This document shows positions 2,036 through 47,632 of a DNA stretch of 64,000 nucleotides, in pieces; position 1 is the first letter of the stretch, and each line of letters starts with the position of its first letter. The position numbers and the translations under genes are program-made. Origin of the DNA: a virus (taxonomy: Duplodnaviria; Caudoviricetes); the IMG/VR virus record IMGVR_UViG_3300035498_000877, positions 64,001-128,000 of that record. One strand, written 5' to 3'. Below the pieces are notes generated by a model. The model saw only the letters and a program-made list of their open reading frames with translations. It did not search any database and was not told the origin of the DNA.

Positions 2036-3199
2036 TTATATTTCTAAATATTCTAAATCATTTTCATGAATTAGCTCATAAATATAATTATAAAATTCAG
2101 GATCATCTTTTTTAATATTTTTAAGTTTCTTTTTAAAATTCTTATATTTATCATTTTCTGATATTTTAGAATGACATAATTCTATATCTACATATGGTTC
2201 AACAAAACCTTTCACCATATAATATATATCACAGTGATTTAGATTGCCCATGTATGATTCAATAGCTCTAGCATCAATTAATCGGATTCTATGATTTTTA
2301 TTAATTGTCATTGCTCTTCTAGTAAATCTCAGCATTGTTGATTTTCTAAGTTCTGTTCTATCCCTAAAAAATCTAAACCCGATAAAATCAAGATCTCTAC
2401 CATAATGAACACCATTTTGAATATAATCAAATCTAAATAATTGATAATTATGCTTTAATTCTAAATGTAAATTATCTTTTACATAATCTTGTATATTATA
2501 AAGCACATTATGTAATTTATATTTATTAGAATCAAATAAAGCCATATCATCCATAAATCTAGCATAGTGAGTAACTCCACACACTTCTTTAATCCAGTGA
2601 TCAAAATCTTGCATATAAAAATTAGCAAACCATTGGGACGTAAAAAAGCCTAATGGGAGACCATGATCTATGGTCCCCAATATGGCTTTAATCAATCTTA
2701 ATACTTTTGCATCTTTAATTTTAGTAGCTAATTTTTCATATAATATATCTTGATCAATAGAATCAAAGAAATGATGTATATCCATTTTAACACAATATTT
2801 TACATGCCGTGGGTCTTCTTTTATCCATTGTTTTATCTTTTTAGCACATTTATGTTGTCCTCTTCCAGGAATTGATGCATATGATAATTCATACATCTGA
2901 GACATTAATACAGGCATAATAGCTTGTATTAACATATGTTGAATTATCAATTCCATATATGTAGGAATATAAAGTTTTCGTTCTTTCTTAGTAGTTGGCT
3001 CAAATATTATTATAGCCGTATGTTCCTTAGGTTCATATGCTTCAGCATATTCAACTATTATAGGATAAAATGTATCAGGGTCATCTAAGATTTTTTGTAC
3101 TGATTCTCTGTCTCTCTTACGTTTTGAGGAATTTTTAATAGCTAATAATACATTCTCATAGCTAATTAAAGTATCCCATAAATTTTTATATGTTTTCAA
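2036..3199 (-). CDS. DGR reverse transcriptase
   Basis: KMDIHHFFDSI, GLPLGFFTSQWFAN (DGR-type SQ motif), YARFMDD, DFIGFRF; adjacent TR/VR pair. Confidence 0.95.
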   Translation of the reverse strand: MKTYKNLWDTLISYENVLLAIKNSSKRKRDRESVQKILDDPDTFYPIIVEYAEAYEPKEHTAIIIFEPTTKKERKLYIPTYMELIIQHMLIQAIMPVLMSQMYELSYASIPGRGQHKCAKKIKQWIKEDPRHVKYCVKMDIHHFFDSIDQDILYEKLATKIKDAKVLRLIKAILGTIDHGLPLGFFTSQWFANFYMQDFDHWIKEVCGVTHYARFMDDMALFDSNKYKLHNVLYNIQDYVKDNLHLELKHNYQLFRFDYIQNGVHYGRDLDFIGFRFFRDRTELRKSTMLRFTRRAMTINKNHRIRLIDARAIESYMGNLNHCDIYYMVKGFVEPYVDIELCHSKISENDKYKNFKKKLKNIKKDDPEFYNYIYELIHENDLEYLEI

Positions 3200-3375
3200 T
3201 TTTATCTTTTGTTATATAAATATCCAAAAAATGCCTAAAAATCACCTTGGCCACTTTCACCTTTCGGCTACTCACAGCATTTGTCGGGTCAATTTCCACC
3301 GATGGGTGTGGATGATACCGTGCATTATTATCACTTATTCCAATTCCAAAAGTAAGTACTAACTTACTTGTGATT
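3200..3375 (-). ncRNA. DGR spacer RNA between TR and RT (probable cDNA-priming structure)
   Basis: Relatively GC-rich non-coding segment (ccacacccatcggtgg...gtgagtagccgaaaggtgaaagtggcc) in the position of the DGR spacer. Confidence 0.55.
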
Positions 3376-3485
3376 TTTAGGAGAGCCGCCGTAGTTCCAG
3401 TTCGAGTCAGAAACCACACCAGAGAGATCCACGCACACCAAGCCCACATGAGACTCATTGTTCGTGTTGCCACCAAATTTCGCGA
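3376..3485 (-). repeat. DGR template repeat (TR)
   Basis: Aligns ungapped with 3994-4103. All 13 mismatches are T on + (A on the coding strand). Reads AKFGGNTNNESHVGLVCVDLSGVVSDSNWNYGGSPK in the VR frame. Confidence 0.95.
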
Positions 3486-3858
3486 TTCACACAGTACCAC
3501 CCAATATCGTTCCCTGAGCATTTGAAAATTAATAGCAATATACCTGGAATAAAAGATATATAATTTAATAGCTCACATGTCATAGCTCAGATCTTAGAAC
3601 ATTATTTGATATTTATATTTTTGAAACTTCATTAATAGTTACATAAATTATTTTATATAAAATAATTTTGATATAATTAGTAGAGTTCATTTACTCTAAA
3701 AGAAAATATAATATTATATAAATATTATATAAATATTATCTTAATATTTTCTCAATATAAATAAATATATTCTAAATATATCAAAATAATATATAATTAA
3801 ATAATATTGTATATTTTTAAAATATTTTTATTATGAATTTTATAAAAATAAATATAAA

Positions 3859-3936
3859 ATATCGAGGGAGATAATCTCCCTCGATATGATATCTTGATTT
3901 TTTATTATATAAGAGGGGACACAATAGTTTCCCCTC
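3859..3936 (-). promoter_or_regulatory. Two hairpins downstream of VR1 (DGR homing hairpin and/or terminator)
   Basis: atatcgagggaga-taa-tctccctcgatat and gagggga...tcccctc, about 35-110 bp past the target stop codon. Confidence 0.6.
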
Positions 3937-3969
3937 TCACTTCGTGATTCACCCTTTACAGATTTTCAT

Positions 3970-5493
3970 CTAAGCTGTCTTTTTAGGTAAACATTTAGGA
4001 GAGCCGCCGTAGGCCCAGAACGAGGCAGAAACCACACCAGAGAGATCCACGCACACCAAGCCCACAGGAGACTCAACGCTCGTGTCGCCACCAAAGGCCG
4101 CGACATCTACTTGAGAGTTGTTAAACCAAGCTCCAGATGTATAATAAGTTGACGCACTACCAGATACCTCTTTAATGAATATACCATTTTCAGTAAATGT
4201 CATACTCTTTAGATAACCACCATTAGTACCAGATGGTGTAGAACCAATATTAATATATCCATCACCAGTAAAGTTATATCCTTCTACTGTACTACCATCT
4301 TCGGTACCATAAGTAAGTTTTACTAACTGAGTACCTTTATTATTTATTAATCCATACATCCATCTCCATATATTACCCCAGAAATTCTCAATACCAAATA
4401 TTTTAACACCTGATACATTATCTGTTGTACCCCAGAATAAACCTTTTTGATCCATAGTACCTGATTTAATTTGTCCAGTATTAGAAGTAGATTTATAAGA
4501 ATTATTATTACCTCTACCAAATGCTGTTTTAGAATCAGTAGTCTTGCTAATTAATAGTGATAATAGTACTATTAATAACCAATCACTATATGTATTCATA
4601 CTCCATATATTGTCACCATTTTGATTATTTGCAGCTGCATATTCAGCAGTCTGTGTTGCATTAATATAATTGGCTACTGATAAACCGCTGATAGATCTTA
4701 ATACACTATCTACATTACTACCATCATATGCTGGCATATACATATATGGTACTTCATCGCCATAATTGTTTATATGAGCCCATGCATGATAATTAGTATC
4801 TACTTGTTTATTTGATATATAAACATTTACACTATCATCTGTTTGTAATACAAGTTTAAAATATACCTTTGGTATACCAACCATTACATTACCTGCAACA
4901 GTAGTATCTGAATTATATGCATCCTCTCCACTAATAGTTTTAGTATAATCATTTGGATCTAATAGATATGCCTCAGTACCATCATAATTCAACATGCATG
5001 GTCTAAGATTCTTTATAAAGAATGCATTACCCCAATCACCATAATCAAATACATCATTATCATAATCCATATGTGCTGCAGTATAATTTGTATTTTGGCC
5101 AATATATGATATCATACTATTAGGATCAGATGTCGATTGATTAAGATTGAATCCATATATTTCAGCATCCCTAATAGTTACTGTTCCAGTGTTTGAATCA
5201 CTATTAACCTCGATTACCATTTTGCTAATTAAATCATTGAACATTGTAGAAATATAATCATCTAATCCCAAATTATCCCTACCAAATTGCTTCTCTTCAT
5301 CAGTCAAATTTTGTTCTTCTGTAACATCTAATGCTTTATAATTTTCCACATTATCCAATCCAATATCGGATTTAGTAATATTATGTGGATTTGATGCTTG
5401 TATATGTTTTTCTATTCTAGTCTTACTATCCTTTTTACTTAATTTAACTAAATCACGAATTGAATTGGTACCAATATACTTATTATTACTCAT
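3970..5493 (-). CDS. DGR target: fibre/receptor-binding protein with C-type-lectin-like C-terminus
   Basis: N-terminal NPHNITKSDIGLDNVEN fibre motif; GIENFWGNIWRW CLec/FGE-type motif; VR at the 3' end. Confidence 0.85.
   Translation of the reverse strand: MSNNKYIGTNSIRDLVKLSKKDSKTRIEKHIQASNPHNITKSDIGLDNVENYKALDVTEEQNLTDEEKQFGRDNLGLDDYISTMFNDLISKMVIEVNSDSNTGTVTIRDAEIYGFNLNQSTSDPNSMISYIGQNTNYTAAHMDYDNDVFDYGDWGNAFFIKNLRPCMLNYDGTEAYLLDPNDYTKTISGEDAYNSDTTVAGNVMVGIPKVYFKLVLQTDDSVNVYISNKQVDTNYHAWAHINNYGDEVPYMYMPAYDGSNVDSVLRSISGLSVANYINATQTAEYAAANNQNGDNIWSMNTYSDWLLIVLLSLLISKTTDSKTAFGRGNNNSYKSTSNTGQIKSGTMDQKGLFWGTTDNVSGVKIFGIENFWGNIWRWMYGLINNKGTQLVKLTYGTEDGSTVEGYNFTGDGYINIGSTPSGTNGGYLKSMTFTENGIFIKEVSGSASTYYTSGAWFNNSQVDVAAFGGDTSVESPVGLVCVDLSGVVSASFWAYGGSPKCLPKKTA
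3994..4103 (-). repeat. DGR variable repeat VR1
   Basis: Encodes AAFGGDTSVESPVGLVCVDLSGVVSASFWAYGGSPK; A-to-N substitutions relative to TR. Confidence 0.95.
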
Positions 5494-5563: not shown

Positions 5564-7804
5564 TCATTGATTATCTACATATTTAGCTAGTGCTGCACAT
5601 TCCAATAGTTTTAATTCATACAACTCATTATCATCTATTACCAATAAAGCCCAATCATCTGGTACATTATTTATCCTTGGTATAAGATTAAAAGATTCAT
5701 ATTTCAAATATAAATTATTCCAATAATAAACATTAGCTAGTGCCTCAGCAATCATTTGTATACATGTGAATGTTGCTTTCTTATTTGGAGTTCCAAATAC
5801 TGTATGACCTAAGGCTGAACATGAAGCACAATCATTTCCAATTGGACAATCAAAACAAATATCATTAGTCTGAGATCTTCTAGTAATTGAATCGAGTAAT
5901 TTTAATACTTCTGAATCTTGTTCTCGTCCAACTAACCCATCATCAATATTTCCAATGCATAGATCTTTAACATCATTTCCTACAGATGTTGGCATATACC
6001 TGATACATGGATAGAATTGTCCATTAGGTCTTAATGCTAACATTGATCCAGTACCTCCACAGAAATTAGAATCATTATGTTTTGCTTCTTTATCCTCCTG
6101 CTTCTCATTAAATATAGATATATAAATATGCTCTAGATTATTAGATATTAAATATCGAGCAAGTTTCTTTAATTGATAATACTCAGTAGCTGCAGTATCT
6201 CTAGTCCATCCTTCCTCAAATACACAATTCATATTTATACATTTCATGTCATTCTTAATAAAGTCTACTACTGAATCATATAAATACATTATATTAGATG
6301 GAGCTAATGTCATCTTAGAATTTCTTTCAGAAGTATAATTCTTATTATAATGATTTAATGCTGCTATATCAATATCATATGATCCTTCTCCATTAGGTTG
6401 TATTCTACAAGAATCATGCAATTGTTTATTTCCATCTATTGATATATTGAATGAAATATTATGTGCATATTCTTTGAAGAATTCTTGTACTTCATCATCA
6501 AAATATTGCATACCATTAGAGCATATAGATAATCTATGTAAAGCAAACCAAGGATGATTTAATTTATAACACTGATCCAAAAAATATTCATAGATCTGTT
6601 TAATCAATTCAATTTCCAATAATGGCTCTCCACCAATAAATTCAATAATAATTGCAGGTGAATTATATCTATTTATATATCCATATTTATCAGCTAATAG
6701 ATTATCTACGAACTTCTTTGCAGTATCAAATGACATTCTATCATTAGTCTTATTAAACTGATAGCAGTATGTACAATTATGGACCACTGCATTATTAGCA
6801 ATATATGTATGACAAGTAGTTGTTAGATTACAAACAGTTCCAGAATCACATGCTTCTAATTTTTCAATCATAACACTATTGCTGGGGACGATCTGAATAC
6901 GTTTATCTATCAAGAAAACAAATAAATCATTATCATCTATAATTTGTTTAAATGGTTTAAATTCTCCATTTGAAGTTAAGAATGGATGATCATCTGTAAC
7001 TCTAAATAATTCTCTTCCTGAAGACTTGTCCTTCACAATATTTAGTGGCTCATACATACGCCACATATTTGTCACTATATATGGCTTAAAGTATTTGAAG
7101 TCATGATATTTTTTAGCATCACTTTCATCAATACCTAAAATTTCATCTCCACAACTAATATCTTCTATATTCTTTTCTGTCCAGTCAGCCATCAGAATTT
7201 TAGTTCCCATAGCAAAACAATTCAAAGAACATCTTTCAGTTACTTGGAAAGTAAAATTATGACAGAATACATCAGCATCGTCACCGCATCCAACTTGATC
7301 TTGTCTTTTATTTGAAAATAATTCTGGATATGCTTTAGCAATTGCATTATTATATGAATCAGTAGTAAATCTGAAATACTGATCTGGAAATATATCTAAT
7401 ACATCATTATCTGGTATCAAATTATCAACTGTTTGTAAAAATTCAACATCATCAGATAATAGTAACATCTTATATTTGCAATACATTGTATCGATTTCTA
7501 CATTCTGGATCAACATATCTTTGATTGGCATATCATTATTTTTAGATACTGATTGCAAAATATCAATTGCTATATTAGAAAACATTGATCTGAGCTGCAT
7601 ACTAGATTCAGTAAATTCTTTTCTCAAATCCGGAATCTTATCTAAATCATAATTGTGTTTAACCATATATTTCATTCTAAACAATAATGCGTCAATTTCA
7701 AGTGATAATCTATCTAATCTGTAATCTTTGTATTTCTCTAATACAAATTTATCAAATTGAACTTTGTATAATGTAATATCTTTTTCTAATAAATGAGTTT
7801 TCAT
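5564..7804 (-). CDS. Radical SAM/SPASM peptide maturase (Cxxx-repeat-target type), intein-containing
   Basis: After intein removal TFQVTERCSLNCTYCY; FIGGEPLL, SIDG, FCGG..ML..G.FYPC and CFDC...C..C SPASM cysteines. Confidence 0.85.
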   Translation of the reverse strand: MKTHLLEKDITLYKVQFDKFVLEKYKDYRLDRLSLEIDALLFRMKYMVKHNYDLDKIPDLRKEFTESSMQLRSMFSNIAIDILQSVSKNNDMPIKDMLIQNVEIDTMYCKYKMLLLSDDVEFLQTVDNLIPDNDVLDIFPDQYFRFTTDSYNNAIAKAYPELFSNKRQDQVGCGDDADVFCHNFTFQVTERCSLNCFAMGTKILMADWTEKNIEDISCGDEILGIDESDAKKYHDFKYFKPYIVTNMWRMYEPLNIVKDKSSGRELFRVTDDHPFLTSNGEFKPFKQIIDDNDLFVFLIDKRIQIVPSNSVMIEKLEACDSGTVCNLTTTCHTYIANNAVVHNCTYCYQFNKTNDRMSFDTAKKFVDNLLADKYGYINRYNSPAIIIEFIGGEPLLEIELIKQIYEYFLDQCYKLNHPWFALHRLSICSNGMQYFDDEVQEFFKEYAHNISFNISIDGNKQLHDSCRIQPNGEGSYDIDIAALNHYNKNYTSERNSKMTLAPSNIMYLYDSVVDFIKNDMKCINMNCVFEEGWTRDTAATEYYQLKKLARYLISNNLEHIYISIFNEKQEDKEAKHNDSNFCGGTGSMLALRPNGQFYPCIRYMPTSVGNDVKDLCIGNIDDGLVGREQDSEVLKLLDSITRRSQTNDICFDCPIGNDCASCSALGHTVFGTPNKKATFTCIQMIAEALANVYYWNNLYLKYESFNLIPRINNVPDDWALLVIDDNELYELKLLECAALAKYVDNQ
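6776..7219 (-). mobile_element. Mini-intein (148 aa, no endonuclease domain)
   Basis: Starts CFAMGTKILMAD, block B TDDHPF, ends YIANNAVVHN followed by +1 Cys. Confidence 0.92.
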
Positions 7805-33352: not shown

Positions 33353-35353
33353 TTATTTTAATACTATCTTAACTATGTTATCAGATACTCTTTTAATTAC
33401 TCTATAACCACTATCTGATTTAGTAGCTATTGAATTATCATTACATTTACAATATCCATTTACTTCACATGTACCATCATCATATACAGCAAGTACACCA
33501 AGCATACCAATAGCACTCCATTCTGGTCTATCATCTCTTTGAATATAACCTTTATCTAGATCATAATCAGGATTTACTTTATAGAACTCTACTTCTACTT
33601 CCTGATCTACTTCTTCAATAGTGGTATTACCATTTTCATCTTTAATTTCCTGCGGTACTTTAATAGTTTGCATAGTTTTTTCTTTAATATATGCCCCAAA
33701 TTCATCTTTCATGAATTTACCTTGCCACTCAGTATCAGTATTACCAAGTACACATGGATTAGCAGATACTATTCCTAGTACCCAATCTCCTTCTTTGGCA
33801 AGTACAATTTTATCTTCAGATAATGTTACAAACTTTCCTCTTCTATCTTCATTATCTGGATTACCATCTAACCATTCGAAGTACTCTGCATAGTCAGCAC
33901 CAGTTGCAGAATATGCAGCTTGAGCATATGTCGCTCCATCATAATCGACTCTAAATGCATTACTATCACCAGCTGATGTACCGTTACCAATTACAAATGC
34001 AGTGCCACTAGTATCTTTAATAGTTCCTCCAGTTGCTAATTCTGGATCATTATAATGACCTTGTGCATGTTGATAGTCTTCAGCAATGGTATACCAACCT
34101 TCTGCGTGTGAAACACCGCCATTAGCTTTAGTAGCATATCCTTCTGCATGCGATTCTCCTCCAATTGATTGTGTCCCGTAACCTTCTGCATGCGAGTAAT
34201 TTCCTTTAGCTTTACCAAATCCTTCTGCATGTGAGTAATCACCAGATGCTGTGGTACTATTACCTTCAGCATGCGATCCAGGACCAGATGCAGTAGTATA
34301 ACCACCTTCAGCATGAGAACTATTTCCTGAAGCTACTGTAGTATCACCTTCAGCATGAGAACATAAACCACTGGCAATAGTACTTTCACCCTCAGCATGC
34401 GTACTATCCTTAGTAGCTGATGTAGTATTTCCTTCAGTGTGACTATAAGTACCAGATGCTGTAGTTTTATAACCCTCTGCATGTGATGCAGTACCAGTAG
34501 CAGTAGTACCTTCACCTTCTGCATGTGAGTAATCACCAGATGCACTTACCCAACCACTTTCTTTACCATATTCACATCCTGCGCCCTCGGCATGAGAACA
34601 TGAACCTGTTGCTTCAGTACGATATCCCTCAGCATGAGAGCAAGGATCTATTGTACTGGTATCATATCCTTCAGTATGAGAATAATCACCTGATGCATAA
34701 CTATATCCTTCTGAATGTGAATATTTACCCTTAGCCTCAGAATACAGTATATCTTCAGCACTAGATCCACCATCATCAAGATGTCCACCACCCTCAGCAT
34801 GAGAATAATCACCAGAAGCTTTAGTTAAAGTACCCTCAGCATGAGATCCTTTACCACTAGCTTTAGTACCAGATCCTTCTGCATGTGAGTAATCACCAGA
34901 CGCTTCTACATATATTAGAATTTCATCATTTATATTACGCATATATCCTTCGGCATGGGAACCTTCACCGCCAGCAATTGTATCTGCACCCTCGGCATGA
35001 GAATAATCACCTGATGCTGTAGTATTATTACCTTCAGCAGTAGAACAATCTCCAGCATCTGTTTCTTTTTTTCTTCCAAGATTTATTGAAGCATCACTGT
35101 ATATTGATAGTTTAGCATATTCATCATCAGCTCCAATATTGGTTCTGATATTATCCTTTTCTTCATCAGTAAGTTCTTGTACTTCAGTAGATACTGCTTT
35201 GTAATTCTCCACATTATCCAATCCAATTGTAGATTTAGTAATATTATGTGGATTTAATGTATCAATATGCTCTTGTAATTTATTATCAACATCCTGTTTG
35301 CTTACATCAATTAGAGTCTTTATTGAATTTTCACCAGCATATTTTTTGCTCAT
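33353..35353 (-). CDS. Tail fibre/spike with about 20 SHAEG (YadA/Hep-Hag-like) repeats and a C-terminal peptidase-G2-type intramolecular chaperone
   Basis: 14-aa SHAEG repeats; ADYAEYFEW...GIVSANP...RPEWSAIGMLG; N-terminus shared with the DGR target. Confidence 0.8.
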   Translation of the reverse strand: MSKKYAGENSIKTLIDVSKQDVDNKLQEHIDTLNPHNITKSTIGLDNVENYKAVSTEVQELTDEEKDNIRTNIGADDEYAKLSIYSDASINLGRKKETDAGDCSTAEGNNTTASGDYSHAEGADTIAGGEGSHAEGYMRNINDEILIYVEASGDYSHAEGSGTKASGKGSHAEGTLTKASGDYSHAEGGGHLDDGGSSAEDILYSEAKGKYSHSEGYSYASGDYSHTEGYDTSTIDPCSHAEGYRTEATGSCSHAEGAGCEYGKESGWVSASGDYSHAEGEGTTATGTASHAEGYKTTASGTYSHTEGNTTSATKDSTHAEGESTIASGLCSHAEGDTTVASGNSSHAEGGYTTASGPGSHAEGNSTTASGDYSHAEGFGKAKGNYSHAEGYGTQSIGGESHAEGYATKANGGVSHAEGWYTIAEDYQHAQGHYNDPELATGGTIKDTSGTAFVIGNGTSAGDSNAFRVDYDGATYAQAAYSATGADYAEYFEWLDGNPDNEDRRGKFVTLSEDKIVLAKEGDWVLGIVSANPCVLGNTDTEWQGKFMKDEFGAYIKEKTMQTIKVPQEIKDENGNTTIEEVDQEVEVEFYKVNPDYDLDKGYIQRDDRPEWSAIGMLGVLAVYDDGTCEVNGYCKCNDNSIATKSDSGYRVIKRVSDNIVKIVLK

Positions 35354-35445
35354 AATAGTATATCTCCTTTCTAGTATTTATTTTGTGTTATTTAATAACT
35401 AATAGAGCTTTATAAAATGGTAAAAAATAAAGAGAGGGATTAGTA
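35347..35445 (-). repeat. Copy of the shared fibre-gene leader (hairpin arm, promoter region, RBS, ATG)
   Basis: Near-identical to 43683-43781; the RBS-proximal part also matches 45309-45388. Confidence 0.9.
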
Positions 35446-35957: not shown

Positions 35958-38900
35958 TTATTCATCTTCTAATCTAGCAAATTTTGATAAATTATTTTTG
36001 AATAGTTGGACAATATTATCAGTTAGATGCTTTTTCTTAAATGGTATATTGTCCATAACCCATTCCATCATCTCATCATAATCATTACCAATCTCATGAG
36101 GATGTAATTTCATCCATATTACATATGTTTTGATTAATTTATTCAGATAATAATATTCGGCTTTAGTACACAATATAGTTGCATCACCAAAACGATATTC
36201 ATTAACTATTTCTTCATCTTCTGCTTGTCCAATAAATTCATCTTCATCATCTATTGTTTGCATTTCAACACCTAATGATTTAAGATAAACTTGTAATATT
36301 TCAGATGTTCTAGAAGTAAATGAATCAGGAATATTATATTTATTATCATCTGATAAAATTGCTTCATACATATATTTTCTACCATCTACTGAAGATCTAT
36401 ATAATGCAGTAATTAATGCAAAGTCTTCTGGGTTAGTTATGATCATGAAGTTGGGCATTTCATATTCGCCGAACCTGATTGGTTTGCTAGAATACCAAGA
36501 TTTACCTATCTTATTTTCATGAGATTTCTCTGGTAATCCCTCATCAGATATTGATCCAGATGAACGTACTGAGAATCCCTTTTCACCTGATTGTTTTAAC
36601 ATCATCATATACTGATATCCAATATTATCACTACCTATATAGATATCTCTACCCCACTTTGGTTTAGGTACAAATATATGATATGGAGTGAATATATCAG
36701 GATATTTTTCATATACCTGAATAATCTTATCTCTCCATGTTTTATAATCAGGCTCTGAACTATCTTCAAATGCTTCCCATCTGATATATAATGTATCATC
36801 AGTTCTTAATGTACCATCTCTATTCAAATTAATGGTACTATCAATAAATTTAACTTTCTCTCGGTCTGATAATCCATCATAAATATTTTCAAATTCTTTA
36901 GCTTCTTTTTCATTAAGTATTTTCATGATATCAAATAAGAATTCTTTACGTTCTTCATTTGTTTCCAAAGTGGCAGCATGTTTTCTAGCAATGTCTTGTA
37001 TGTATGTAACACTACCTTCAAGCATAACCATTGGAATAGTTCTATTAATAATAGCTAGAGGATTTGTAATCATATCTACTCTTTCGATAATACCTTTTGG
37101 ATGTTTAACTCCATATTTATCTACAGTATATTCCCTAGTAAGATATGGCATTTCTTCATCTGCTCTAATCTGACAAATCACTGTTTTGTCATTTCCTTCA
37201 CATAGTTCGCAACACTATGCAGTTCTCTTATGAACTTCTCATACTCTCGTATGACAATAATCTATCTCAAGGTTAAGGTGTATTTCTACAGTTGAGACTA
37301 TATCTTTAGCTCATTTATATGAACAGAGCTAGGCTTTTCCAATTAAGGGAATTTCACCCGCTACCATTAGCTTGTAGCCGTACTCCTGTTGGCTTGTTAG
37401 GCCCGAGGGATAGTCGTTGAACTTCTTTATTTTGATATACTTTACATGCATAATGCATATGTTATAATTAATTGAATTATATGAAAACATTGATCTTGTA
37501 TCAAATTAATCTTCAATAAATTCGCTTTAATATGATCTATGATATAATGAGCAATTGAATTTACAAATAACATGATTGTTATAATAAGATATTTATCTTC
37601 ATTATGATAATTATAAATTACAATTGGTAGCATTATACAGAATGCCCATTGAAATGAATGCAAATATAATGCTATAATATAATCATATTGATATAAAGGT
37701 GATGGAGCATTTTCTTCCCACCACTTTTTCTGTTTCATAGATCCCATTAATCCTTGTAAGTTAAAATCAGCAAATATGTGCATAAATAACATTGCTGAGT
37801 ATACTATATATTTTGGAATAATCATAATATCACTTCCTTTCTTATTGGAAGTATATCAAAATAAATTTAGCTGCGGATCTTCTCTATTAACTACATTATT
37901 ACTATACCTAAGGCATTACCCTTCGCCATCATTATATTACTATAATGATTTAGTAGTGTTACTTTACAAGATTTGCCCGCAATTAACCTAGTTTTACATG
38001 GGCCAAAACATACATATGCTCCCATGTCGGCCTACGATCTTTCGGCCGATGATTGCTTGTTCTTTCTTACGTACTAAAATCTCTACCATCATATTAGAGA
38101 ATACATTATCATTATATGCCCATACTGCTTGAGTATCTAGATAATTCATTGCAATTCTCTTCCAATGATTAATATTTTTATGGATATTTTTACATCCCGA
38201 TTTCAGTATCTTATTGCATATTTTATATACCTTAGTATAGAACCATCTGCTGTCATTGTAATATTGAACAAGTTGTTTATTCACTTTATTAACTTTTATA
38301 TTGGAATTATTGCAATAGATATTGATATCAATTATTTCACCATCTGCATAGAATATTTGATCTGTTTGAGCATTGATGTGAGTAAGTGAAGAATCTCTGA
38401 GATCTGAAAACATTCTAGTCTCTTTAATGGTACGAGTAGCTGCCAATATACCATTATCTATTTTATCTCCAATATTAGGAAGTCCAATATAATCGTTATT
38501 ATCCTTCCCATATAAATTCAATAGAATCGTATTTTCATTGATTGGTATTGTAATAGATTTCACATTATTAGTCACCATTCGTTTTGCAAATGATTCTGAT
38601 ACTACAATAGCATCATCCTGTACAGCTGGATCAACCCCATACAATATTCTTCCATTAATACCAACTCCAACATTCATATCTTCATCATATGATGTAGATG
38701 CATATACTAATGTATCTTTGGATATAGTTTCACCAACTTCGCATTGATCCAGAAAATCATTATCATAAGCAAATCCAAAATTTTCTGTTAGATCCTCTAC
38801 CTCTTTGCGTTCCAATACAATATACTTATCTTCTTTCTCTGAATATAGAAAGTATAGTGCCATATAAGATTTACCTTTTAACAGTTCTTCATACTTCTTA

Positions 38901-39172
38901 GCAATATCAACTACTTTGTAGTCAGTATCGGCACGAAAATAATTTGAAGATTGCTCACCTATTAGATTCTCCTTACCATCAAAGAACATAGGAAATTCTG
39001 GATTATCAATTGCTAAATGTTGAACCTTATGTTTGATATTCATGGTAGATCTCATAACATTGTTACCACCAGGAAAATCTCCTTGACCAACTAAAGCTAA
39101 TCTTTTGTTACCTTTGAGCTCTTCATTTTTCTTTTGAAGTTCGTATATAAGGTTATACTTCTCTCTAGCCAT
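35958..39172 (-). CDS. Phage RNA polymerase beta subunit, C-terminal part; 2 exons (38020-39172, 35958-37189), about 794 aa
   Basis: RSTMNIKH, QDDAIVVSES, spliced GRKIVGRHGNKTVI...EEMPYL, ITNPLAIINR, GYQYMMMLKQ, PIRFGEYE. Confidence 0.9.
37190..38019 (-). ncRNA. Group I intron (830 nt) containing a non-endonuclease ORF
   Basis: P aattgcgggcaaa, Q agatccgcagc, R gttcaacgacta, S aagatatagtc; 3' region nearly identical to intron 21659-22152. Confidence 0.88.
37442..37825 (-). CDS. Intron-encoded DUF3307-like membrane protein
   Basis: HIFADFNLQ, H..QW, HYIIDHIK, DQCFH motifs with hydrophobic helices; own SD aaggaagtg. Confidence 0.75.
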   Translation of the reverse strand: MIIPKYIVYSAMLFMHIFADFNLQGLMGSMKQKKWWEENAPSPLYQYDYIIALYLHSFQWAFCIMLPIVIYNYHNEDKYLIITIMLFVNSIAHYIIDHIKANLLKINLIQDQCFHIIQLIITYALCM

Positions 39173-39318
39173 TTTACTTATTCCTCCTTTAAAAATGTTA
39201 ATAGTAATAGTTCTCACTTACCGAAAAAGAATATATAAATAAAAATAAATATAGATCCTTAATTTTTATTCACTTTTTACAGTTTCTATAATAATATTTA
39301 AGTAAAGGAGAGAATCTT

Positions 39319-42300
39319 ATGAATATTGAATTAGTTGATATGAATAGGATTATAGGTGTTAATAAGTTAGAAGAAGTCAGTGGACCTAGATTATTTTCTT
39401 CTAAGATGACTTATGATCCTGCAGGTATATTATCGAATGAAATATTTGGTATTTCTAAACAAGATAGACGTAATACATTTGCCTATATAAATCTTAGAAG
39501 ACCTTTTATTCATCCGCATATCTATAATAATGTATTGATACCCACATATCGAAAAGCTATTGGTATTGTTGCTGGTCAGAAATATGTAAGTGTTAAAGAT
39601 GGAATTATAATAGATGATCCTGATAATGGATGGACTGGTATATCTAATTTATATTCACATTGGGATGAAATAGACTGGAAGAAAGTCAAACTCAATGAAT
39701 CCAATAATAGATCACTATTAGTGAATCTAAAAAGAGATCAAGTATTTATTGACAAGATACTAGTATCACCACCAGCCTATCGTGATGTAATGATTAGTGG
39801 TACAGTAGATTCTTCAGATCATGTCAGTGAAGTAAATGATTTATATTTAAAATTAATCAGATCAGTTGCTTTATTATCTGAGGGAGGAATGTTTGCTAGA
39901 ACACAGTATGCCACTCAGAAAAATATACAGGATACATTAGTAGCTATTTATAATTACTATAAGAATCTTATATCAAAGAAACAAGGATTGATCAGAAAGT
40001 ATTTACTAGGTAAGAGTGTTGACTATGGTACCAGATCAGTTATATCAGCTCCATCTTATAACCATGAGAGATTTGAAGATAATATAATTGATATGGATCA
40101 CTCTGCAATACCAATAGAACAATGTTGCTCTAACTTTTATCCATTTATAGAAGCATGGGTAAAAAATTTCTTTACAAGGGAAATTATTAATGATCCAAAT
40201 GTAATGACTTTTTATGACCCAGAATTGAAAAGAGAAATTACTGCATCTATTAAAGATCCAGAAATACAATTCTCTGAAAAGAATGTAAAGAAGATGATAA
40301 ATGATTACTGTTTGAATCCTGATAATAGATATAAAATAATAACAATGGATGTTGTTATTCCCACAGCTAAAGAGGATAAAATATTGAAAGCAAATCTATT
40401 ATTGAAAGGAAAAGTAATTCTTCCTAATAATGCTTCTACCCAATTAGCAAGACAACTAACAGTAACAGATATCTTATATTTGGCATGTGTTGATGTATGT
40501 GAAAAAAGACATATAATGATATCAAGATATCCTGTAGGTACAGATAAAGGAATATACTTTAATAAGATAAGAGTTCAATCAACACGTAATCATATTAAAT
40601 TAGTATTCAATGGAAAAGAATATCCTTTTTATCCAGATATACGATTAGATACTGATCATGATAAAGTAGGAATTCAATTTATTGATTCATTAGTTCTATC
40701 CAATGCTCATTTGGATGGCATGGGTAAATCAGTGCTCATGTAAAACCTTTTTAACTGCCGGGAACTCCATTAATCATAAATAACTGCAGCTAGTAGTGAT
40801 ACATAGTGTAGCAATATACATAACGGTATATGGATAGTAAAATCATTTATGATTGGATAATCATAGGCAGCCAAGTATCTATATTTATATAGATAAAGGT
40901 TCAGAGACTATCGGCCAACTATAATATGCGAGAAACTCGGTATTAATAGTCATTAGAGTAGATCTATCACGATAGATAGACCACCAATCTTGGCAGGAAG
41001 TGGAGTAATTCGAAATGGAAGGTGGGGGATATCGGTAACAGGTATTCTCTGAAGATATAGTCCAAAATTAAAGTTCTAACCCCAGTAAAATCGCTGGCTG
41101 ATTATGATGGCGATGTACTTAGCTTAAGGGGTATATGGTCCGATGAAGCTAATCAAGAAGCTGAAGAGATCATGAATAAGAAAATAAGTGTATTAAATAT
41201 TACTGGTACTAATGCTAAAGGAGTATCTAAGGAATTAGTAAACTCTATGTACGAATTAACTAAAACTATGAAAGGATCTAGATCAATCAATGAAGAAGAA
41301 ACTAAAGAATTACTTAGTATTAGTTTTAACGATATTACTAGAAGTAAACTTGCAGATTGGTTTGCTGATACAGTAGATTGTTCAGTAAAGAATCAAGCAG
41401 GTAAAAGACATTCTAGGTTTAATACATGGGATCTAATGAATGTTCCTAGAAATTATTTTTATGATGGACAACCTGCATTGACTACTACTGTAGGTAAATT
41501 TGTGTACAATAAATTTGTATTGGAAGCATCTGGAATTATTGGTGCAGTAGGATATATATCTGATACTATCAATAAAGGCAAGAATGGTGATATTGATAAT
41601 CTAGTAGGAGATCTTTTATTGAATGATAAAATTAATAAGACTCAATTCAATAATTATATTGATAGAAGAGATACTTTAGGTTATTGGATAAATGGCATGT
41701 TAGCACATACAATATCTGAAAAGATGCTTAAGCCATTACCAGAAGTTGAGAAGAAGAAAGCAGAATTAATTAAAGCACATGAAAAAGAATTAGCTGAAGG
41801 AAATATTGATGTAATGACTCAGATAAGTGATGAGCTTGTTTCTTATGCTAAAGATATACTTAAAGATGATCCTGGCATGGATCTATATACTTCGGGTGAT
41901 CTTGATTTTGGTAACAATTATAAATGTAATTCAATATTGAAAGGTGCTGTAAAGAATGAGATCACAGGTGAATATGATTTTATTGGATCATCATTTATGG
42001 ATGGTATTGAAATTAAAGATATTCCATCACATGCAAATTCAATATTGGCATCTCAATATCCTGCATCAATTGCAACTAAAGATGCTGGTTATCTCGGTAA
42101 GAAATTATTAGCATTACTTCAGATGATGGAATTAGATGAACCTGATACTGATTGTGGTACTAAACAATTGGTACCAGTAGAAATTACCAAATCTAATAAA
42201 TCCAATATGATATATTCATATATAGATGAGGGTGGCGGAAAACTCACTATGCTAGATAATTCTAATATTGGATCATATATTGGAAAGACTGTTAAAATGA

Positions 42301-42500
42301 GATCTCCTATGACATGTACTGGTCAAAAGATATGTTCTAAATGTGCTGGTAAACTATTCTATATGATAGGAGCTGAACATATTGGATTATTTGCAGTACA
42401 GATTTCACATGCTGATCTTAACTTGGCATTGAAAGCTAAACATGATGCATCAGTAAAACTTCATGTTTTTAATCCTGATGAAATCCTTGAGGATATTTAA
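39319..42500 (+). CDS. Phage RNA polymerase beta' subunit (catalytic); 2 exons (39319-40725, 41097-42500), 936 aa
   Basis: GILSNEIFG, PPAYRD, LLGKSVDYGTRSVI, SRYP; splicing restores GMG|ADYDGD; DCGT, RSPMTC, ICSKCAG. Confidence 0.92.
40726..41096 (+). ncRNA. Group I intron (371 nt) inside the catalytic DxDGD region
   Basis: P1 catgggU|...gctcatg with U.G pair; P10 aatcagt/gctgatt; P aactgccgggaa, Q aatcataggcagc, R gttcagagacta, S aagatatagtcc; terminal G. Confidence 0.92.
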
Positions 42501-42609
42501 TTATATATTATAATAGTAATGATATAGTCGGTATTATAAAAATATCGTCGGGTATACACTATGTCATTAAAAGTTATAACTTTAAATAAAAAGAAGGGAG
42601 CTCTCAAAC

Positions 42610-43389
42610 ATGAGTAAAGGAACAATCAATTTTAAAACAGCGTGCCCCAAATGCGGAACAAAATTAACGATTGATAATGTTAAAAAAGAAGATGTATTGC
42701 CGGCACCAAAACTCAGAAGTGGTCACAAACCAGCTGGTGAATTACTTCTGTACAGAGAAACAACTGAATCAATCAAACAATTTCTGATTGATAAGTGTAG
42801 GGCATATGCCCCTGATATCTCAGTTGAAATATTGACGAGATATAATGAAAAGAAACATGGAAAATCATTTGATCCACACAGATGTTATGCTTATTTCATT
42901 TTAGCAATGACAGCTAATGAAGCATTGACTGCAGAGTCAGATGATATGTATGTACGTATTGGATCTGAAGGAAATGATAATCTTTCATTCATATCTGAAA
43001 TTAAGTATCATATAATCAATAAATATCGCTGGGATAAAAAGTGGCTTTCTGATACATTAAAATCATATGCAGCAATGGAAAAGCTTGAAGCTGCATTAGG
43101 TTTAACACCAGCAATGTTATCTGAGATCAATAAGTTTTCAAATCCTACTATTATTAAATCAAATAATATAGCATGGGTTGAAGTAGCAATACAGGCTGAG
43201 AAAGTTTTGGCTGATATGTTTACTGATACATCAACAAATGAATCAATTCCATTTAAGATTAATGATATTAGACCAATATCAGAAAATAACATTCAGTATG
43301 ATATCTTGGTTGATCCAGATGCTAAGAAGATACTTACACCAGATGATTCTGTTATGTTATTGATTAAGAATAGCATTAAGAATAAATAA
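42610..43389 (+). CDS. Hypothetical protein with N-terminal CPKC
   Basis: 259-aa ORF, aagggag SD. Confidence 0.6.
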   Translation: MSKGTINFKTACPKCGTKLTIDNVKKEDVLPAPKLRSGHKPAGELLLYRETTESIKQFLIDKCRAYAPDISVEILTRYNEKKHGKSFDPHRCYAYFILAMTANEALTAESDDMYVRIGSEGNDNLSFISEIKYHIINKYRWDKKWLSDTLKSYAAMEKLEAALGLTPAMLSEINKFSNPTIIKSNNIAWVEVAIQAEKVLADMFTDTSTNESIPFKINDIRPISENNIQYDILVDPDAKKILTPDDSVMLLIKNSIKNK

Positions 43390-43411
43390 TTATTAAAGGA
43401 GATAAACATCA

Positions 43412-43666
43412 ATGGGAAAGACAGAAAAATTAACAGGTAAGGTTAAATGGTTCAATGAGCAGAAAGGATTTGGATACATCACAGCTGATGATGGAACAGA
43501 TTACTTTGTACATCGTTCAGGGATTAAGAAGGCTCATCCAAAGACAATTGTAGTATCAAATCTTGAAAAAGATGATGTTGTAGAATTTACAATTCAGGAT
43601 GCACCAAAGGGACCACAGGCAGTATCTGTTACAGTAGTAGATGATACTGATGAAGCTACAGAATAA
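43412..43666 (+). CDS. cspA: Cold-shock domain protein
   Basis: GKVKWFNEQKGFGYI, DYFVH, KGPQA. Confidence 0.9.
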   Translation: MGKTEKLTGKVKWFNEQKGFGYITADDGTDYFVHRSGIKKAHPKTIVVSNLEKDDVVEFTIQDAPKGPQAVSVTVVDDTDEATE

Positions 43667-43701
43667 TAATATAAGGGAGGGATACTAATCCCTCTCTTTA
43701 T

Positions 43702-43796
43702 TTTTTACCAATAAATAAAGCTCTATTAGTTATTAAATAACACAAAATAAATACTAGAAAGGAGATATACTATTATGAGCAAGAAGTACTTGGGGG
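43702..43796 (+). repeat. 95-bp inverted repeat, left arm
   Basis: Perfect reverse complement of 45294-45388. Confidence 0.92.
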
Positions 43797-45136
43797 GGGG
43801 TTCATTAAAATCCCTAATACAAACTATATTAACAACATTTCCAACAAGTGAAATTACTGAAGATGAAATAAATGATATGTACTATCCACCAAATGTATAT
43901 GGTTTTAGTATAGATCAAACAGCAACCAACTCAGATAGTGCTATATCATATATTGGGCAGAATGTAAATTATACTGCAGCACAAAAGACAGATGCTTACG
44001 TATTTGATTATGGGGATTGGAAAGATGCATTCTTTATAAAGAATCTTAGACCATGTATGTTGAATTATGATGGTACTGAGGCATATCTATTAGATCCAAA
44101 TGATTATAGTAAGAAATTAGATAGTACTGATTCAGATATAGATAATAGTGATTTTGCTGGAAATGTAATGGTAGGAATACCAAAAGTATATTTTAAGATA
44201 GTTAAAGTGGATGATGATCATATCAATTTTTATTTTTCAGATAAGAAAGTAGATGATAACTATCATTGTTGGGCTCATATAAATAACTATGGTGATGAAG
44301 TACCATATTATTATTTATCAATATATTTTGGGCAACTTATTGATGGAAAAATAAGATCATTTTATAATTCTAATGGACGTGAAACTAATTTTAACTTCGA
44401 TACAGGTATAAATGATTCTGGTATAGTTGATTATTATGAAAAAGGTAACAATATTAAAGATTATGCTATGGCAAATAATATAAATGGTAATAATATTTGG
44501 GGTTTAGAAACATATAGTAGTTGGTTATTAATCACGTTATTGTCTATTTTGATATTTAAGGATTCTGATATATCGGATATATATCGTCCATTTGGTTCAA
44601 CATGCATCTGGGGTAATTATCCAAAACTTATTAATGGATTTTTATTTAATATTCAGAATAGACAATTTCTAGTAAAACTTACATATGGTACTCAAGATGG
44701 TAGTACTGTAGAAGGATATAATTTTGCTGGAGATGGATATATTGAAGGCCCTATATTATCTTCTGCATTTGATCACCAAGATGACTGCAATAATACATAT
44801 TGTACTGCTCATGTTAACACTGACTATGGAGTTGATATAGGAATAACCGGTCGAGTGTCAAAAATGAAATTCACTGAGCAAGGTATTATGTTTCCAGTGG
44901 AAAGTATGCACTTTGAAGATGATACTGCGTATCGTTTTACAATATTTGCAGAATATGGTGATGTGTATGGTGACCCAATTACAGATAGAAATACGTTATA
45001 TTGTCTCGCTAATGGAAATTGCGCACTTAGCAGTAACGAAAAAATACCATATAATATGATATTTATTGGGAGTATATTTACTAATTTTTATTGTAAAACA
45101 TCTTTAATTTGTCTACCAAAAATCCAGACAAAATAA
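43775..45136 (+). CDS. Paralog of the DGR target protein; G9 tract at 43792-43800 (in frame)
   Basis: Shares YIGQN.NYTAA, FFIKNLRPCMLNYDGTEAYLLDPNDY, VKLTYGT.DGSTVEGYNF and terminal CLPK with 3970..5493. Confidence 0.85.
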   Translation: MSKKYLGGGSLKSLIQTILTTFPTSEITEDEINDMYYPPNVYGFSIDQTATNSDSAISYIGQNVNYTAAQKTDAYVFDYGDWKDAFFIKNLRPCMLNYDGTEAYLLDPNDYSKKLDSTDSDIDNSDFAGNVMVGIPKVYFKIVKVDDDHINFYFSDKKVDDNYHCWAHINNYGDEVPYYYLSIYFGQLIDGKIRSFYNSNGRETNFNFDTGINDSGIVDYYEKGNNIKDYAMANNINGNNIWGLETYSSWLLITLLSILIFKDSDISDIYRPFGSTCIWGNYPKLINGFLFNIQNRQFLVKLTYGTQDGSTVEGYNFAGDGYIEGPILSSAFDHQDDCNNTYCTAHVNTDYGVDIGITGRVSKMKFTEQGIMFPVESMHFEDDTAYRFTIFAEYGDVYGDPITDRNTLYCLANGNCALSSNEKIPYNMIFIGSIFTNFYCKTSLICLPKIQTK

Positions 45137-45148
45137 ATAATATAATAT

Positions 45149-45175
45149 TAGAAGAGGGATTTAATCCCTCTTCTA
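45149..45175. terminator. Bidirectional hairpin between the paralog and the VR2 remnant
   Basis: tagaagagggat-tta-atccctcttcta. Confidence 0.7.
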
Positions 45176-45191
45176 TATTTTTATTGATCTA

Positions 45192-45315
45192 TTAACTAAC
45201 TGATTTGGGTAGACATTTAGGAGAGCCGCCGCAGGGCCAGCCCGAGCTAGAAACCACAACACCGAGAACCACGCACAACAAGCCCACACGACGCCCCCAA
45301 GTACTTCTTGCTCAT
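45192..45315 (-). pseudogene. Internally deleted DGR target: MSKKYLG start fused out of frame to a VR copy (VR2, 45216-45296)
   Basis: VR frame reads RVGLLCVVLGVVVSSSGWPCGGSPKCLPKSVS*; 62/75 identity to TR over 45216-45290. Confidence 0.85.
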
Positions 45316-45388
45316 AATAGTATATCTCCTTTCTAGTATTTATTTTGTGTTATTTAATAACTAATAGAGCTTTATTTATTGGTAAAAA
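45294..45388 (-). repeat. 95-bp inverted repeat, right arm
   Basis: Perfect reverse complement of 43702-43796. Confidence 0.92.
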
Positions 45389-45472
45389 TGAACATTTTTT
45401 GGTTATATATTTTTAATTTAAATGACCAACATATTTATCAATTCAATATTAATAAAATTGGAGGAAGTAGAA

Positions 45473-47632
45473 ATGAGTGAATATGAAGTTTATAATTTAC
45501 CAATAATAAGAACTGTTGAAGATTGCGAAAGAGAATTTCCAGATGTGTATATAATATCTAGATTTGACACATATGAAAAATTCGATGATTTTTATTACAA
45601 GATATACTATGCAATATGTGCATGTGCAGAAATTAAAGCATGTCTTAGTTACAAAATCAAATTTAAATTTTATCCAGAAGATGAAATTATCTATGAATTA
45701 TCTATGCCAAAATTATTATTAAATATGAATTCATGGCGTCCATTAATCGAATTAAATACCATTCAAGATCACTATATTAAAAAGATAGAAGTATTAGATG
45801 AATCATATATTGTGGGTACAATGATGTCTAATAAATTACGTGTAGGGTTAGAGTCAAAAGTAATGAATGTATTAAGTGATTATGGTATTACATTTGAAAG
45901 AATATCTGAATTGCTTAAAGAATTGATTGAGAGATATCAACAAGCATCAGTAGAATTTGCATTAAGCTCTAAGGCAGCAATCATGACATATGAAAGTATA
46001 TTCCTCAATGACTATAGAAACTCTGAAAAGATTAGGGAACTAAATAATACTAAGATAAGCCAGGAATTACAGACATCTGAAGTTGAAGAAGTATTAAATA
46101 AGAAAACAGCTGAACTAATCACTGAGATGGGTAAGACAAAGAATCCAATATGGTATGTATCTAAAGCTGGTAATCATATTAAAGAGAAACAGGTACAGGA
46201 ATTATTTATATCTTATGGACAGATACCAAATGTAGATGGTAATGTTATTCCATATACAATGCAGGGAAATGGATTTTCTACTGGATATATTGATCCAGCT
46301 ACATATTATGTTGCAGCTACAGGTGCTCGATTATCTAATATTATGAATAAAGCTCACATGGGTGAAGCTGGATATCTATCACGTAACCTTATATTGGCAT
46401 CTCGTACTATGACATTATCTCATACTGTATTTGATTGCGGAACTAAGCATCTATTGAAACTCCATGTTACTGATAGTGCATTTCTTCATAGATTGGAAAA
46501 CAAATGGATCACAGAAACTCAAGGTGGTAAACTAGAATTATGCCACTATGAAAAACATAAATATCTTATTGGAAAAGATATCTATGTTAGATCACTTGTA
46601 ACATGTGCTGGAGGAAATGAAGTATGCCATATGTGTTATGGTGGCGATGCTAAACTAGTAATGAATATGCCTGGTATGGCTATATTTAATACTGAAGTAT
46701 ATTCAGAACCAGTAGGTCAGAATATCCTATCAACAAAACATCTTCTATATACAGCTGCAAATAAGATTACATTTAGTGATTCATTTAATAAATATTTTAA
46801 GTTCAATGCAGGTGATATTTATCTCAAAGATAAAGATGATTGGGATTTAGATGTTCCATTCGATCAATTATACATTAGAATAGAAGAAGGTAATGTGGTA
46901 TCAGTTAATAATAATGATATGGCTGAATATAATACCTTTGGTAATAATATTGAAAGCCCATTATTTATATATAATAATAGGACTAATGAATATGATAAAA
47001 TAGAGATTATTAATTATGAATCAATGTTTATTGATTCTGAATCTATGAGATCATTTAAATTAGTATTGGATAAGACTAATGGAAAGAAATATTATCAAAT
47101 ATCATTAGTTTCATTATCATCTGATCTTGAAGGAAGATTGATGTCAATTGATATTAAGAATAATGGATTAACTGATAATCTGTATATGATTATGGATCTT
47201 ATCAATAAGAATGCTAGAAAGTATACTGATTATAATCAGTTAGCACAAGACTTCTTTGAGAGTATGATTAAAGCTAATATTAAATGTAGACATGTGCAAG
47301 TAGAAGTCATCTTAAATAGACTGATTAGAGATACTGATAATATCTATAAGAGACCTGACTTTACTAAGTTTGAAAATCCTAAATATCAGATATTAAATCT
47401 AAATCAAGCATTATTAAATACAGATGCACCTACTATTGGATTATCATATCAGGAAGTTAAACGACAAATATTGTCAGATGCATTGTATGAAGATAAGAAT
47501 GGATCTTCATACCTCGATCCATTATACGCAAACAAAGTAAGTACTAAACATCTCAAAGAATTAATTGCTAAAGTAGCAGAAAGAAAGAGGAGAGAAAAGG
47601 ATGAACGAGAACGAAGAGAGCAAGAGGAGTAA
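45473..47632 (+). CDS. Phage RNA polymerase beta' subunit, C-terminal part (second enzyme)
   Basis: GARLS...AGYLSRNL, FDCGT, VRSLVTC...VCHMCYG, SEPVGQNILSTKH, HVQVEVIL; start MSEYEV behind ggagga. Confidence 0.85.
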   Translation: MSEYEVYNLPIIRTVEDCEREFPDVYIISRFDTYEKFDDFYYKIYYAICACAEIKACLSYKIKFKFYPEDEIIYELSMPKLLLNMNSWRPLIELNTIQDHYIKKIEVLDESYIVGTMMSNKLRVGLESKVMNVLSDYGITFERISELLKELIERYQQASVEFALSSKAAIMTYESIFLNDYRNSEKIRELNNTKISQELQTSEVEEVLNKKTAELITEMGKTKNPIWYVSKAGNHIKEKQVQELFISYGQIPNVDGNVIPYTMQGNGFSTGYIDPATYYVAATGARLSNIMNKAHMGEAGYLSRNLILASRTMTLSHTVFDCGTKHLLKLHVTDSAFLHRLENKWITETQGGKLELCHYEKHKYLIGKDIYVRSLVTCAGGNEVCHMCYGGDAKLVMNMPGMAIFNTEVYSEPVGQNILSTKHLLYTAANKITFSDSFNKYFKFNAGDIYLKDKDDWDLDVPFDQLYIRIEEGNVVSVNNNDMAEYNTFGNNIESPLFIYNNRTNEYDKIEIINYESMFIDSESMRSFKLVLDKTNGKKYYQISLVSLSSDLEGRLMSIDIKNNGLTDNLYMIMDLINKNARKYTDYNQLAQDFFESMIKANIKCRHVQVEVILNRLIRDTDNIYKRPDFTKFENPKYQILNLNQALLNTDAPTIGLSYQEVKRQILSDALYEDKNGSSYLDPLYANKVSTKHLKELIAKVAERKRREKDERERREQEE

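Follow-up and report, generated by a model that had tools for sequence, protein, structure and literature searches.

Tail-fiber genes are classic targets of inversion in phages (the G segment of Mu, the C segment of P1), and poly-G contingency tracts occur in receptor-binding genes of Campylobacter phages. Another source of hypervariation is the diversity-generating retroelement (DGR), in which one reverse transcriptase (RT) and one template repeat (TR) may serve more than one variable region (VR). The non-adjacent targets of phage-associated DGRs nearly always lie within 50 kb of the RT, and second targets often carry several differences that are not A-to-N, while first targets carry none (Wu et al. 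2018, NAR, PMC5758913). Two-target phage DGRs with C-type-lectin variable proteins have also been described (Baykov et al. 2023, PMC10743442). In BPP-1-type systems, homing requires an initiation of mutagenic homing (IMH) sequence plus a GC-rich hairpin of 7-10 bp with a 4-nt GRNA loop, placed 4-34 bp after the VR (PMC3240598). Contingency loci in phages are also the subject of the preprint "Phages use contingency loci" (bioRxiv 10.1101/2025.10.21.683753). Here, we analyze a locus at positions 43702-45388 of a 64,000-nt window (positions 64,001 to 128,000 of IMG/VR virus record IMGVR_UViG_3300035498_000877, Caudoviricetes), in which a gene start with a short G-run is joined directly to a second DGR variable region, VR2. 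The record is a single contig of 289,234 bp (30% GC; CheckV 100%), and all coordinates refer to the window unless given as genome positions.

We favor, with a probability of roughly 70%, the reading that this locus is a pseudogenized, non-adjacent DGR target that was fused by a deletion to a poly-G start module found across its gene family, and that VR2 is a fossil. The elements on which the argument depends are as follows:

2036-3199, minus strand: DGR reverse transcriptase, the only RT in the genome (RVT_1, E 2e-18)
About 3376-3485, minus strand: TR of the genome's only DGR
3970-5493, minus strand: current DGR target gene, 507 aa, with its variable region, VR1, at 3994-4103
43702-43796, plus strand: left arm of an inverted repeat, with leader, ribosome-binding site (RBS), start codon (ATG, 43775) and the 5 G that open a 9-G run
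43775-45136, plus strand: tail-protein gene (453 aa; phrog_5302 tail protein, E 9.8e-27), paralogous to the DGR target and in frame with its 9 G
45149-45175, no strand assigned: 12-bp hairpin with a terminator score on both strands, common to both convergent genes
45192-45315, minus strand: remnant gene of 124 nt, consisting of ATG, 5 G, VR2 and a gene tail
45216-45288, minus strand: VR2 core matching the TR; over 25 codons it differs from the TR at 13 sites, each a first or second codon position
45294-45388, minus strand: right arm, with the same leader/RBS/ATG/G5 module, at the head of the remnant

The remnant runs from the ATG in the right arm (45315) through five G and a TR-like, GC-rich stretch to a stop at 45192. 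This confirms the 124-bp remnant joining the G-run to a VR copy that had been described in an earlier interpretation of the same DNA, made without database searches and called the sequence-only reading below. The frame of the ATG stops after 22 codons, while the VR frame is shifted and ends in GGSPKCLPKSVS before its stop codon; 6 or 3 G would be needed in the run to read into it. In a search of the 289-kb genome, the TR matches VR2 at 83.6% identity over 73 nt (E 2.7e-8), and VR1 and VR2 are the only matches to the TR at the DNA level genome-wide. A single A occurs among 79 nt of the VR2 coding strand, although the genome has a GC content of 30%. VR1 and VR2 both carry the VR-type end GGCGGCTCTCCTAAATGT, where the TR has GGCGGCTCTCCTAAAAAT; the 3' end in VR2 reads AAATGT CTACC... 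and its TR counterpart ...AAAAAT. The IMH-like end of VR2, whose IMH function is predicted from sequence, is the same as that of VR1 over 18 nt.

The gene tail beyond this end, CTACCCAAATCAGTTAGTTAA (KCLPKSVS, then stop), differs from the VR1 tail (KCLPKKTA, then stop) and is akin to the tails of poly-G paralogs (KCLPKLVS and KCLPKLAS, each before a stop). At the protein level, GGSPKCLPKSVS is closer to the end of the paralog at genome 281702-282889 (GGSPKCLPKLVS) than to the facing 453-aa gene. Because VR2 has a VR-type end and a gene tail with no counterpart in the TR, a stray or ectopic insertion of TR cDNA is ruled out; a recent copy of VR1 was likewise rejected, as VR2 departs from VR1 at many sites and ends in another tail. 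VR2 is, as far as its sequence tells, the real 3' end of a second DGR target gene, 42 kb from the only RT, and the idea of a VR diversified in trans at that distance is borne out: it is a genuine DGR-type VR. The gene body is absent from the G-run to mid-VR, as expected from the collapse at the G-run that had been proposed. VR2 begins mid-TR, about 30 nt short of the 5' limit of VR1, and identities to the TR of 9-16 nt persist within it.

The mismatch pattern carries information on the age of VR2. VR1 differs from the TR at 10 sites, all of them TR adenines (10/10). In VR2, the 25 aligned codons hold 13 differences, with none at third positions; all mutable TR adenines are changed (8/8), and five differences are off adenine. 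Across 39 related loci with a TR beside the target, each TR/VR pair has 5-23 mismatches, of which only 0-1 are off adenine. We threaded the TR codons of these relatives onto the protein alignment of the VR region, and checked the alignment. Four of the five non-adenine differences in VR2 sit in columns 46, 47 and 51, and a further TR change is found in column 44:

Column 44: own TR GAT; VR2 GTT; relatives' TRs AAY in 39/39
Column 46: own TR TCT; VR2 GGT; relatives' TRs AAY in 38/38
Column 47: own TR GGT; VR2 GTT; relatives' TRs AAY in 36/37
Column 51: own TR GAC; VR2 AGC; relatives' TRs AAY in 36/37

The family TR thus reads ...NLNN..SN.NWN..., versus ...DLSG..SD.NWN... in this phage. The pattern recurs in one more relative (54% identity), in which all mismatches (20/20) are at adenines. 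All VR2 differences but one (column 41, GTG/TTG) are A-to-N from a family-type TR. The column 44 change (AAT to GAT) departs from the family TRs only, not from the state implied by VR2. The central part of the TR (VDLSGVVSD, window 3376-3485) is itself without the AAY codons of related TRs (NLNN..SN), and its departures are all A-to-N.

VR2 and the present TR agree at all third positions, and thus belong to the same lineage. What is new here is the misfit of VR2 to the present TR at five non-adenine sites, which marks it, to judge by codon pattern, as an old product and not a current one. This suggests that the TR that last wrote VR2 was an earlier one with more adenines, some of which have since been lost. 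Set against the present TR, VR2 departs from the adenine-only pattern (8 of 13 differences at adenines); set against such an earlier TR, it would conform. All that the non-adenine mismatches show is that VR2 has fixed no homing product since the TR changed. Because the codon changes in today's TR are all A-to-N (AAY AAY to TCT GGT; AAC to GAC), the DGR might have rewritten its own template, with mutagenized cDNA or VR1 copied back into the TR; we consider this a serious candidate, with the odds somewhat against it. A limited literature search found no description of a TR overwritten by its own mutagenized product. If true, such self-rewriting would "harden" four binding-site positions and shrink the future search space of the element. 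The fossil suggests an adenine-specific route of TR adenine loss, which bears on how DGRs age.

The start of the remnant is a module shared among fiber-type genes. The two arms form a perfect 95-nt inverted repeat, as the sequence-only reading had claimed (100% complementary, with 1497 nt between). Both arm ends are ATGAGCAAGAAGTACTTGGGGG, and each arm contains an AT-rich leader, AGGAG, ATG and AGCAAGAAGTACTTGGGGG. The repeat is real, but other loci share it: a whole-genome BLAST search returns the same 95 nt a third time at 100% identity (genome 281525-281619), so that three of the leaders are mutually identical, and near-copies (95-96%) at two more fiber genes, at genome 21284 and window 35340-35426. 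The near-copy in the window has the following context:

35340-35426, minus strand: third leader copy in the window, 94-96% identical, without a G-run, heading a 666-aa fiber gene
33353-35353: 666-aa fiber gene with a Peptidase_G2 domain and the leader copy at its head

A scan for the pattern RBS-ATGAGYAA...TACTTG-Gn yields six modules in the genome, with runs of 9, 9, 9, 10, 11 and 5 G. All six begin fiber-type genes, some in frame and some out of frame. The long G homopolymer in the 5' coding region sets the frame; the left-arm gene has 9 G and is in frame, and the remnant has 5 G. At this locus, run length does not vary among the contigs compared, with 9 G in contigs L005 and L008 as in the window, and with the 5 G also present in L005. 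Three more poly-G modules (9, 10 and 11 G) are out of frame here, at window 31591 (genome 95591), genome 260826 and genome 281598; the last of these heads the closest paralog of the DGR target. We presume from its position that the leader is a promoter; a scan of the leader for sigma-70 promoters gave no more sites than shuffled sequence.

The perfect inverted repeat exists because two neighboring family members with the same start module lie convergent. It is incidental, a by-product of gene orientation and no special inversion structure. The origin first proposed for the repeat, an inverted gene duplication, is not upheld, given that the module is common to six loci and the VR2 tail is closer to the paralog at genome 281702-282889.

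The 453-aa gene that faces the remnant is a paralog whose C-terminus no longer matches the TR, and here protein and DNA comparisons agree with the earlier interpretation. Its residues 41-323 share 49% identity with the DGR target (target residues 111-413). No alignment to the target extends into its last ~130 aa, the C-terminus being different and AT-rich, and the 3' end of the gene has no DNA-level match to the TR. The hairpin reported between the two genes is also there (12 bp at 45149-45175, of terminator type on both strands); it belongs to a genome-wide hairpin family. This shared terminator, with 5 GC pairs and a 3-nt loop, is the only hairpin after VR2 and lies about 40 nt past the TR homology, so it has neither the loop nor the 4-34 bp spacing of the PMC3240598 type. 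The nearest strong hairpin of VR1 is distant too (about 57 nt), which suggests that the BPP-1 hairpin rule may not transfer to this DGR lineage. A search for RNA elements at the locus with Rfam gave only sub-threshold sraA matches on the terminator.

The family to which both genes belong scores as PHROG 5302, "tail protein." Besides the target, the genome encodes five more paralogs, with 59-70% identity across the common body. An AlphaFold model of the full target (predicted local distance difference test, pLDDT, 64.7; predicted template modeling score, pTM, 0.72) matches the Thermus DGR variable protein 5vf4 best among PDB entries (E 2.5e-6), while the next match, a formylglycine-generating enzyme, reaches only E 0.6. 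The VR part of the model is of low confidence, with residues 488-507 below 50, and the VR2 stump is too short to fold.

Altogether, we propose the following history for the locus. It consists of two convergent members of the tail-protein family, each headed by the same leader/RBS/start/poly-G module. The right-hand gene would be a former second, non-adjacent target of the phage's single DGR, and on the most economical reading a poly-G-module paralog that also bore a DGR variable region. We infer an internal deletion within this one gene, of about 1.2 kb, that would have taken out everything from the G-run after codon 6 through the middle of the variable region. Left over would be a frame-broken 124-nt pseudogene in which the leader, the 3' half of the VR, the IMH-like end, the tail and the terminator are intact. 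VR2 would have been last written while the TR had adenines in at least three more codons (N-L-N-N...S-N), before the TR became D-L-S-G...S-D; only VR1 would have been rewritten since. VR2 is thus most likely an inert molecular fossil.

Several points weigh against this history. Adenine mutagenesis does not explain the column 41 difference (GTG/TTG), and the CGT that follows the G-run, ahead of the first codon with a clear match, is likewise unaccounted for. The relatives used for the ancestral TR are all distant (≤52% amino acid identity), so that "ancestral AAY" is a family consensus and not the state of a sister genome. Consensus contigs cannot reveal rare homing events at VR2. A full-length allele of the right-hand gene was not found, and the deletion is deduced from one state only. 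The sequence-only reading had called for such an allele in related genomes; neither full-length alleles nor VR2 variants appeared among the retrieved homologs and pattern scans, and the homologs with at least 57% identity, besides the target, are the phage's own paralogs (P0002, P0003, P0020 and P0043). The INPHARED phage collection gave no match to 43000-46000. Exact-pattern scans for the TR/VR invariants, the VR2 tail and the leader returned nothing in viral contigs, and the VR2-tail pattern returned nothing in metagenome contigs, in searches that may miss near-identical records; a shorter IMH pattern gave one unrelated chance match in metagenome contigs (L121), which was set aside.

The alternative that fares best, though we regard it as unlikely, keeps the deletion and makes the DGR its author. 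Homing would have started at the IMH of VR2, the 5' end of the cDNA would have joined a cryptic site in the G-run, and the gene body would have been lost. The junction does fall exactly between the G-run and a G-rich, adenine-mutagenized stretch (GGGGG CGT CGT GTG), and VR2 does start mid-TR, short of the 5' limit of VR1. In BPP-1, 5' cDNA integration needs only at least 8 bp of identity, and cryptic sites are usable when the VR is truncated (PMC3240598); here, however, no TR identity of at least 8 nt is visible in the leader or G-run. Ordinary slippage or a microhomology deletion at poly-G accounts for the junction equally well, and a single junction cannot separate such an ordinary deletion from one made by the DGR.

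Less probable again is that the remnant is still used, either through a +1 slip to 6 G that would yield a 41-aa hydrophobic peptide, or with VR2 as a live homing target or decoy. In favor of such use, the leader shows no decay and matches two other copies at 100%, 18 nt of the IMH-like end are the same as in VR1, stretches of TR identity persist and a hairpin lies ~40 nt downstream. On the other side, a 41-aa piece cannot adopt the family's lectin-like fold, no rewriting of VR2 has followed the five changes in the TR, and the hairpin, with its loop of 3 nt, is outside the 4-34 bp range of phage DGRs. Runs of 5 G also slip far less often than runs of 9-11 G.

The sequence-only reading had further suggested that the segment may invert, or that VR2 acts as a silent donor. 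We give little credence to either an invertible or recombining segment that switches fiber expression or to a silent donor cassette. A perfect 95-nt inverted repeat suffices for homologous recombination, but neither Resolvase (PF00239) nor Phage_integrase (PF00589) has a match in the whole genome, so no serine or tyrosine recombinase was found. A flip would have no functional effect: each arm encloses the leader, RBS, ATG and six codons, and either isomer would yield the same pair of transcripts. With the module present at six loci, the repeat follows from gene orientation, and the sole other contig with both arms has the same orientation. For the donor role, there is no known route from VR2 to an expressed gene, and neither a mechanism nor evidence was found.

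We assign just as small a chance to an assembly artifact, in which the leader was misjoined to a VR-bearing fragment, for example through poly-G errors or repeat collapse. Poly-G runs are error-prone on some sequencing platforms, and the leader is multi-copy, with contigs of other samples that stop inside the left arm (L007 at 43741, L009 at 43706), as expected for such a repeat; but JGI contig Ga0376450_001665 (13.5 kb, sample 3300035497, a different assembly) is 100% identical to window 37775-45605 and covers both arms, VR2 and the 5 G in the same orientation, with identical junction and flanks, the VR2 sequence and its tail occur nowhere else in the genome, VR2 is continuous with the shared terminator at one end and with unique sequence ahead of an RNA polymerase gene at the other, and 5 G is too short a repeat to collapse a gene. 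By its length, this contig should also cover the third leader copy, although only 37775-45605 was compared. The two assemblies may derive from related samples, which tempers their agreement.

The surroundings of the locus and of the DGR add some detail. The fiber pair, together with a 259-aa gene and a cold-shock-domain gene, lies between split RNA polymerase genes:

41172-42500 and 45422-47632: split RNA-polymerase beta'-like genes (phrog_2962, phrog_3015) flanking the fiber pair

In three other samples, contigs begin at 45639, 45639 and 45648; the contig with both arms ends at 45605. This shared break (45605-45648) is inside the 736-aa RNA polymerase beta'-like gene, in a stretch not repeated elsewhere in the genome, and may represent a structural or intron polymorphism. 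The 736-aa protein has no exact match on record, and relatives of the 453-aa protein reach ≤34% identity. The paralog at the contig end (genome 287944-289234) is cut by the record end. A 4.2-kb contig from another sample (L122) encodes a 572-aa protein with the same C-terminus, probably the full-length form of this paralog, which would make the record probably circularly permuted.

The RT at 2036-3199 is the single RVT_1 match in the 289-kb genome, and its gene lies directly downstream of the TR. Relatives of the RT are ≤44% identical, and none has a similar TR. The Avd family (PF05635) has no match in the 289-kb genome at E ≤ 1, and no open reading frame suitable for Avd lies between VR1 and the RT. 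The target gene and the TR are separated by about 400 nt of non-coding, very AT-rich DNA (window 3200-3970). Five contigs, which represent at least three other samples, carry the exact VR1-bearing protein, and its 90% cluster contains no variant; these are consensus data, which permit no statement on current DGR activity. Adjoining the target is a 746-aa gene (window 5564-7804, minus strand) with a weak precomputed Pfam Hom_end_hint match and, by eye, radical-SAM-type cysteine motifs; it may encode an intein-bearing enzyme.

Taken alone, the locus is a pseudogene and gives no indication of a switch. Its significance would lie in what it records: the single DGR of a jumbo phage appears to have once served two tail-protein genes 42 kb apart, and one former target also seems to have carried a poly-G on/off module, which would place two hypervariation mechanisms on one gene. 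In the literature consulted on these systems, we found no description of a gene combining a poly-G switch with a DGR variable region.

Among known systems, the Mu G segment with Gin and the P1 C segment with Cin resemble the locus in that inverted repeats flank tail-fiber coding sequence. Unlike in those systems, the genome here has no invertase, the repeats hold leader and start instead of lying inside the constant 5' part of a gene, and inversion would not swap C-termini. The locus also resembles poly-G contingency genes, with a G-run just past the start codon setting the frame of fiber genes (9, 9, 9, 10 and 11 G here), although the run of the remnant is only 5 G and marks the end-point of a deletion.

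As in two-target DGRs, BPP-1 Mtd and TaqVP (5vf4), the VR is at the 3' end of a gene of tail or receptor-binding type, and the TR has AAY codons, with adenine-specific mismatches to VR1. Unlike in the two-target DGRs, no Avd-family gene was found in this genome at the threshold given above, and the second target comes from a six-member paralog family, most members of which are not DGR-linked. In the class described in PMC5758913, as here, a single RT/TR also acts on a second VR elsewhere in the phage genome, in this case at 42 kb. The second target differs from that class in being a deleted, frame-broken stump, and its non-A differences trace to the AAY codons of related TRs. Lying in AAY-type codons, these differences point to a change in the TR and not to non-canonical mutagenesis. 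This suggests that the non-A-to-N mismatches of second DGR targets may record later change of the TR, and not sloppy reverse transcription.

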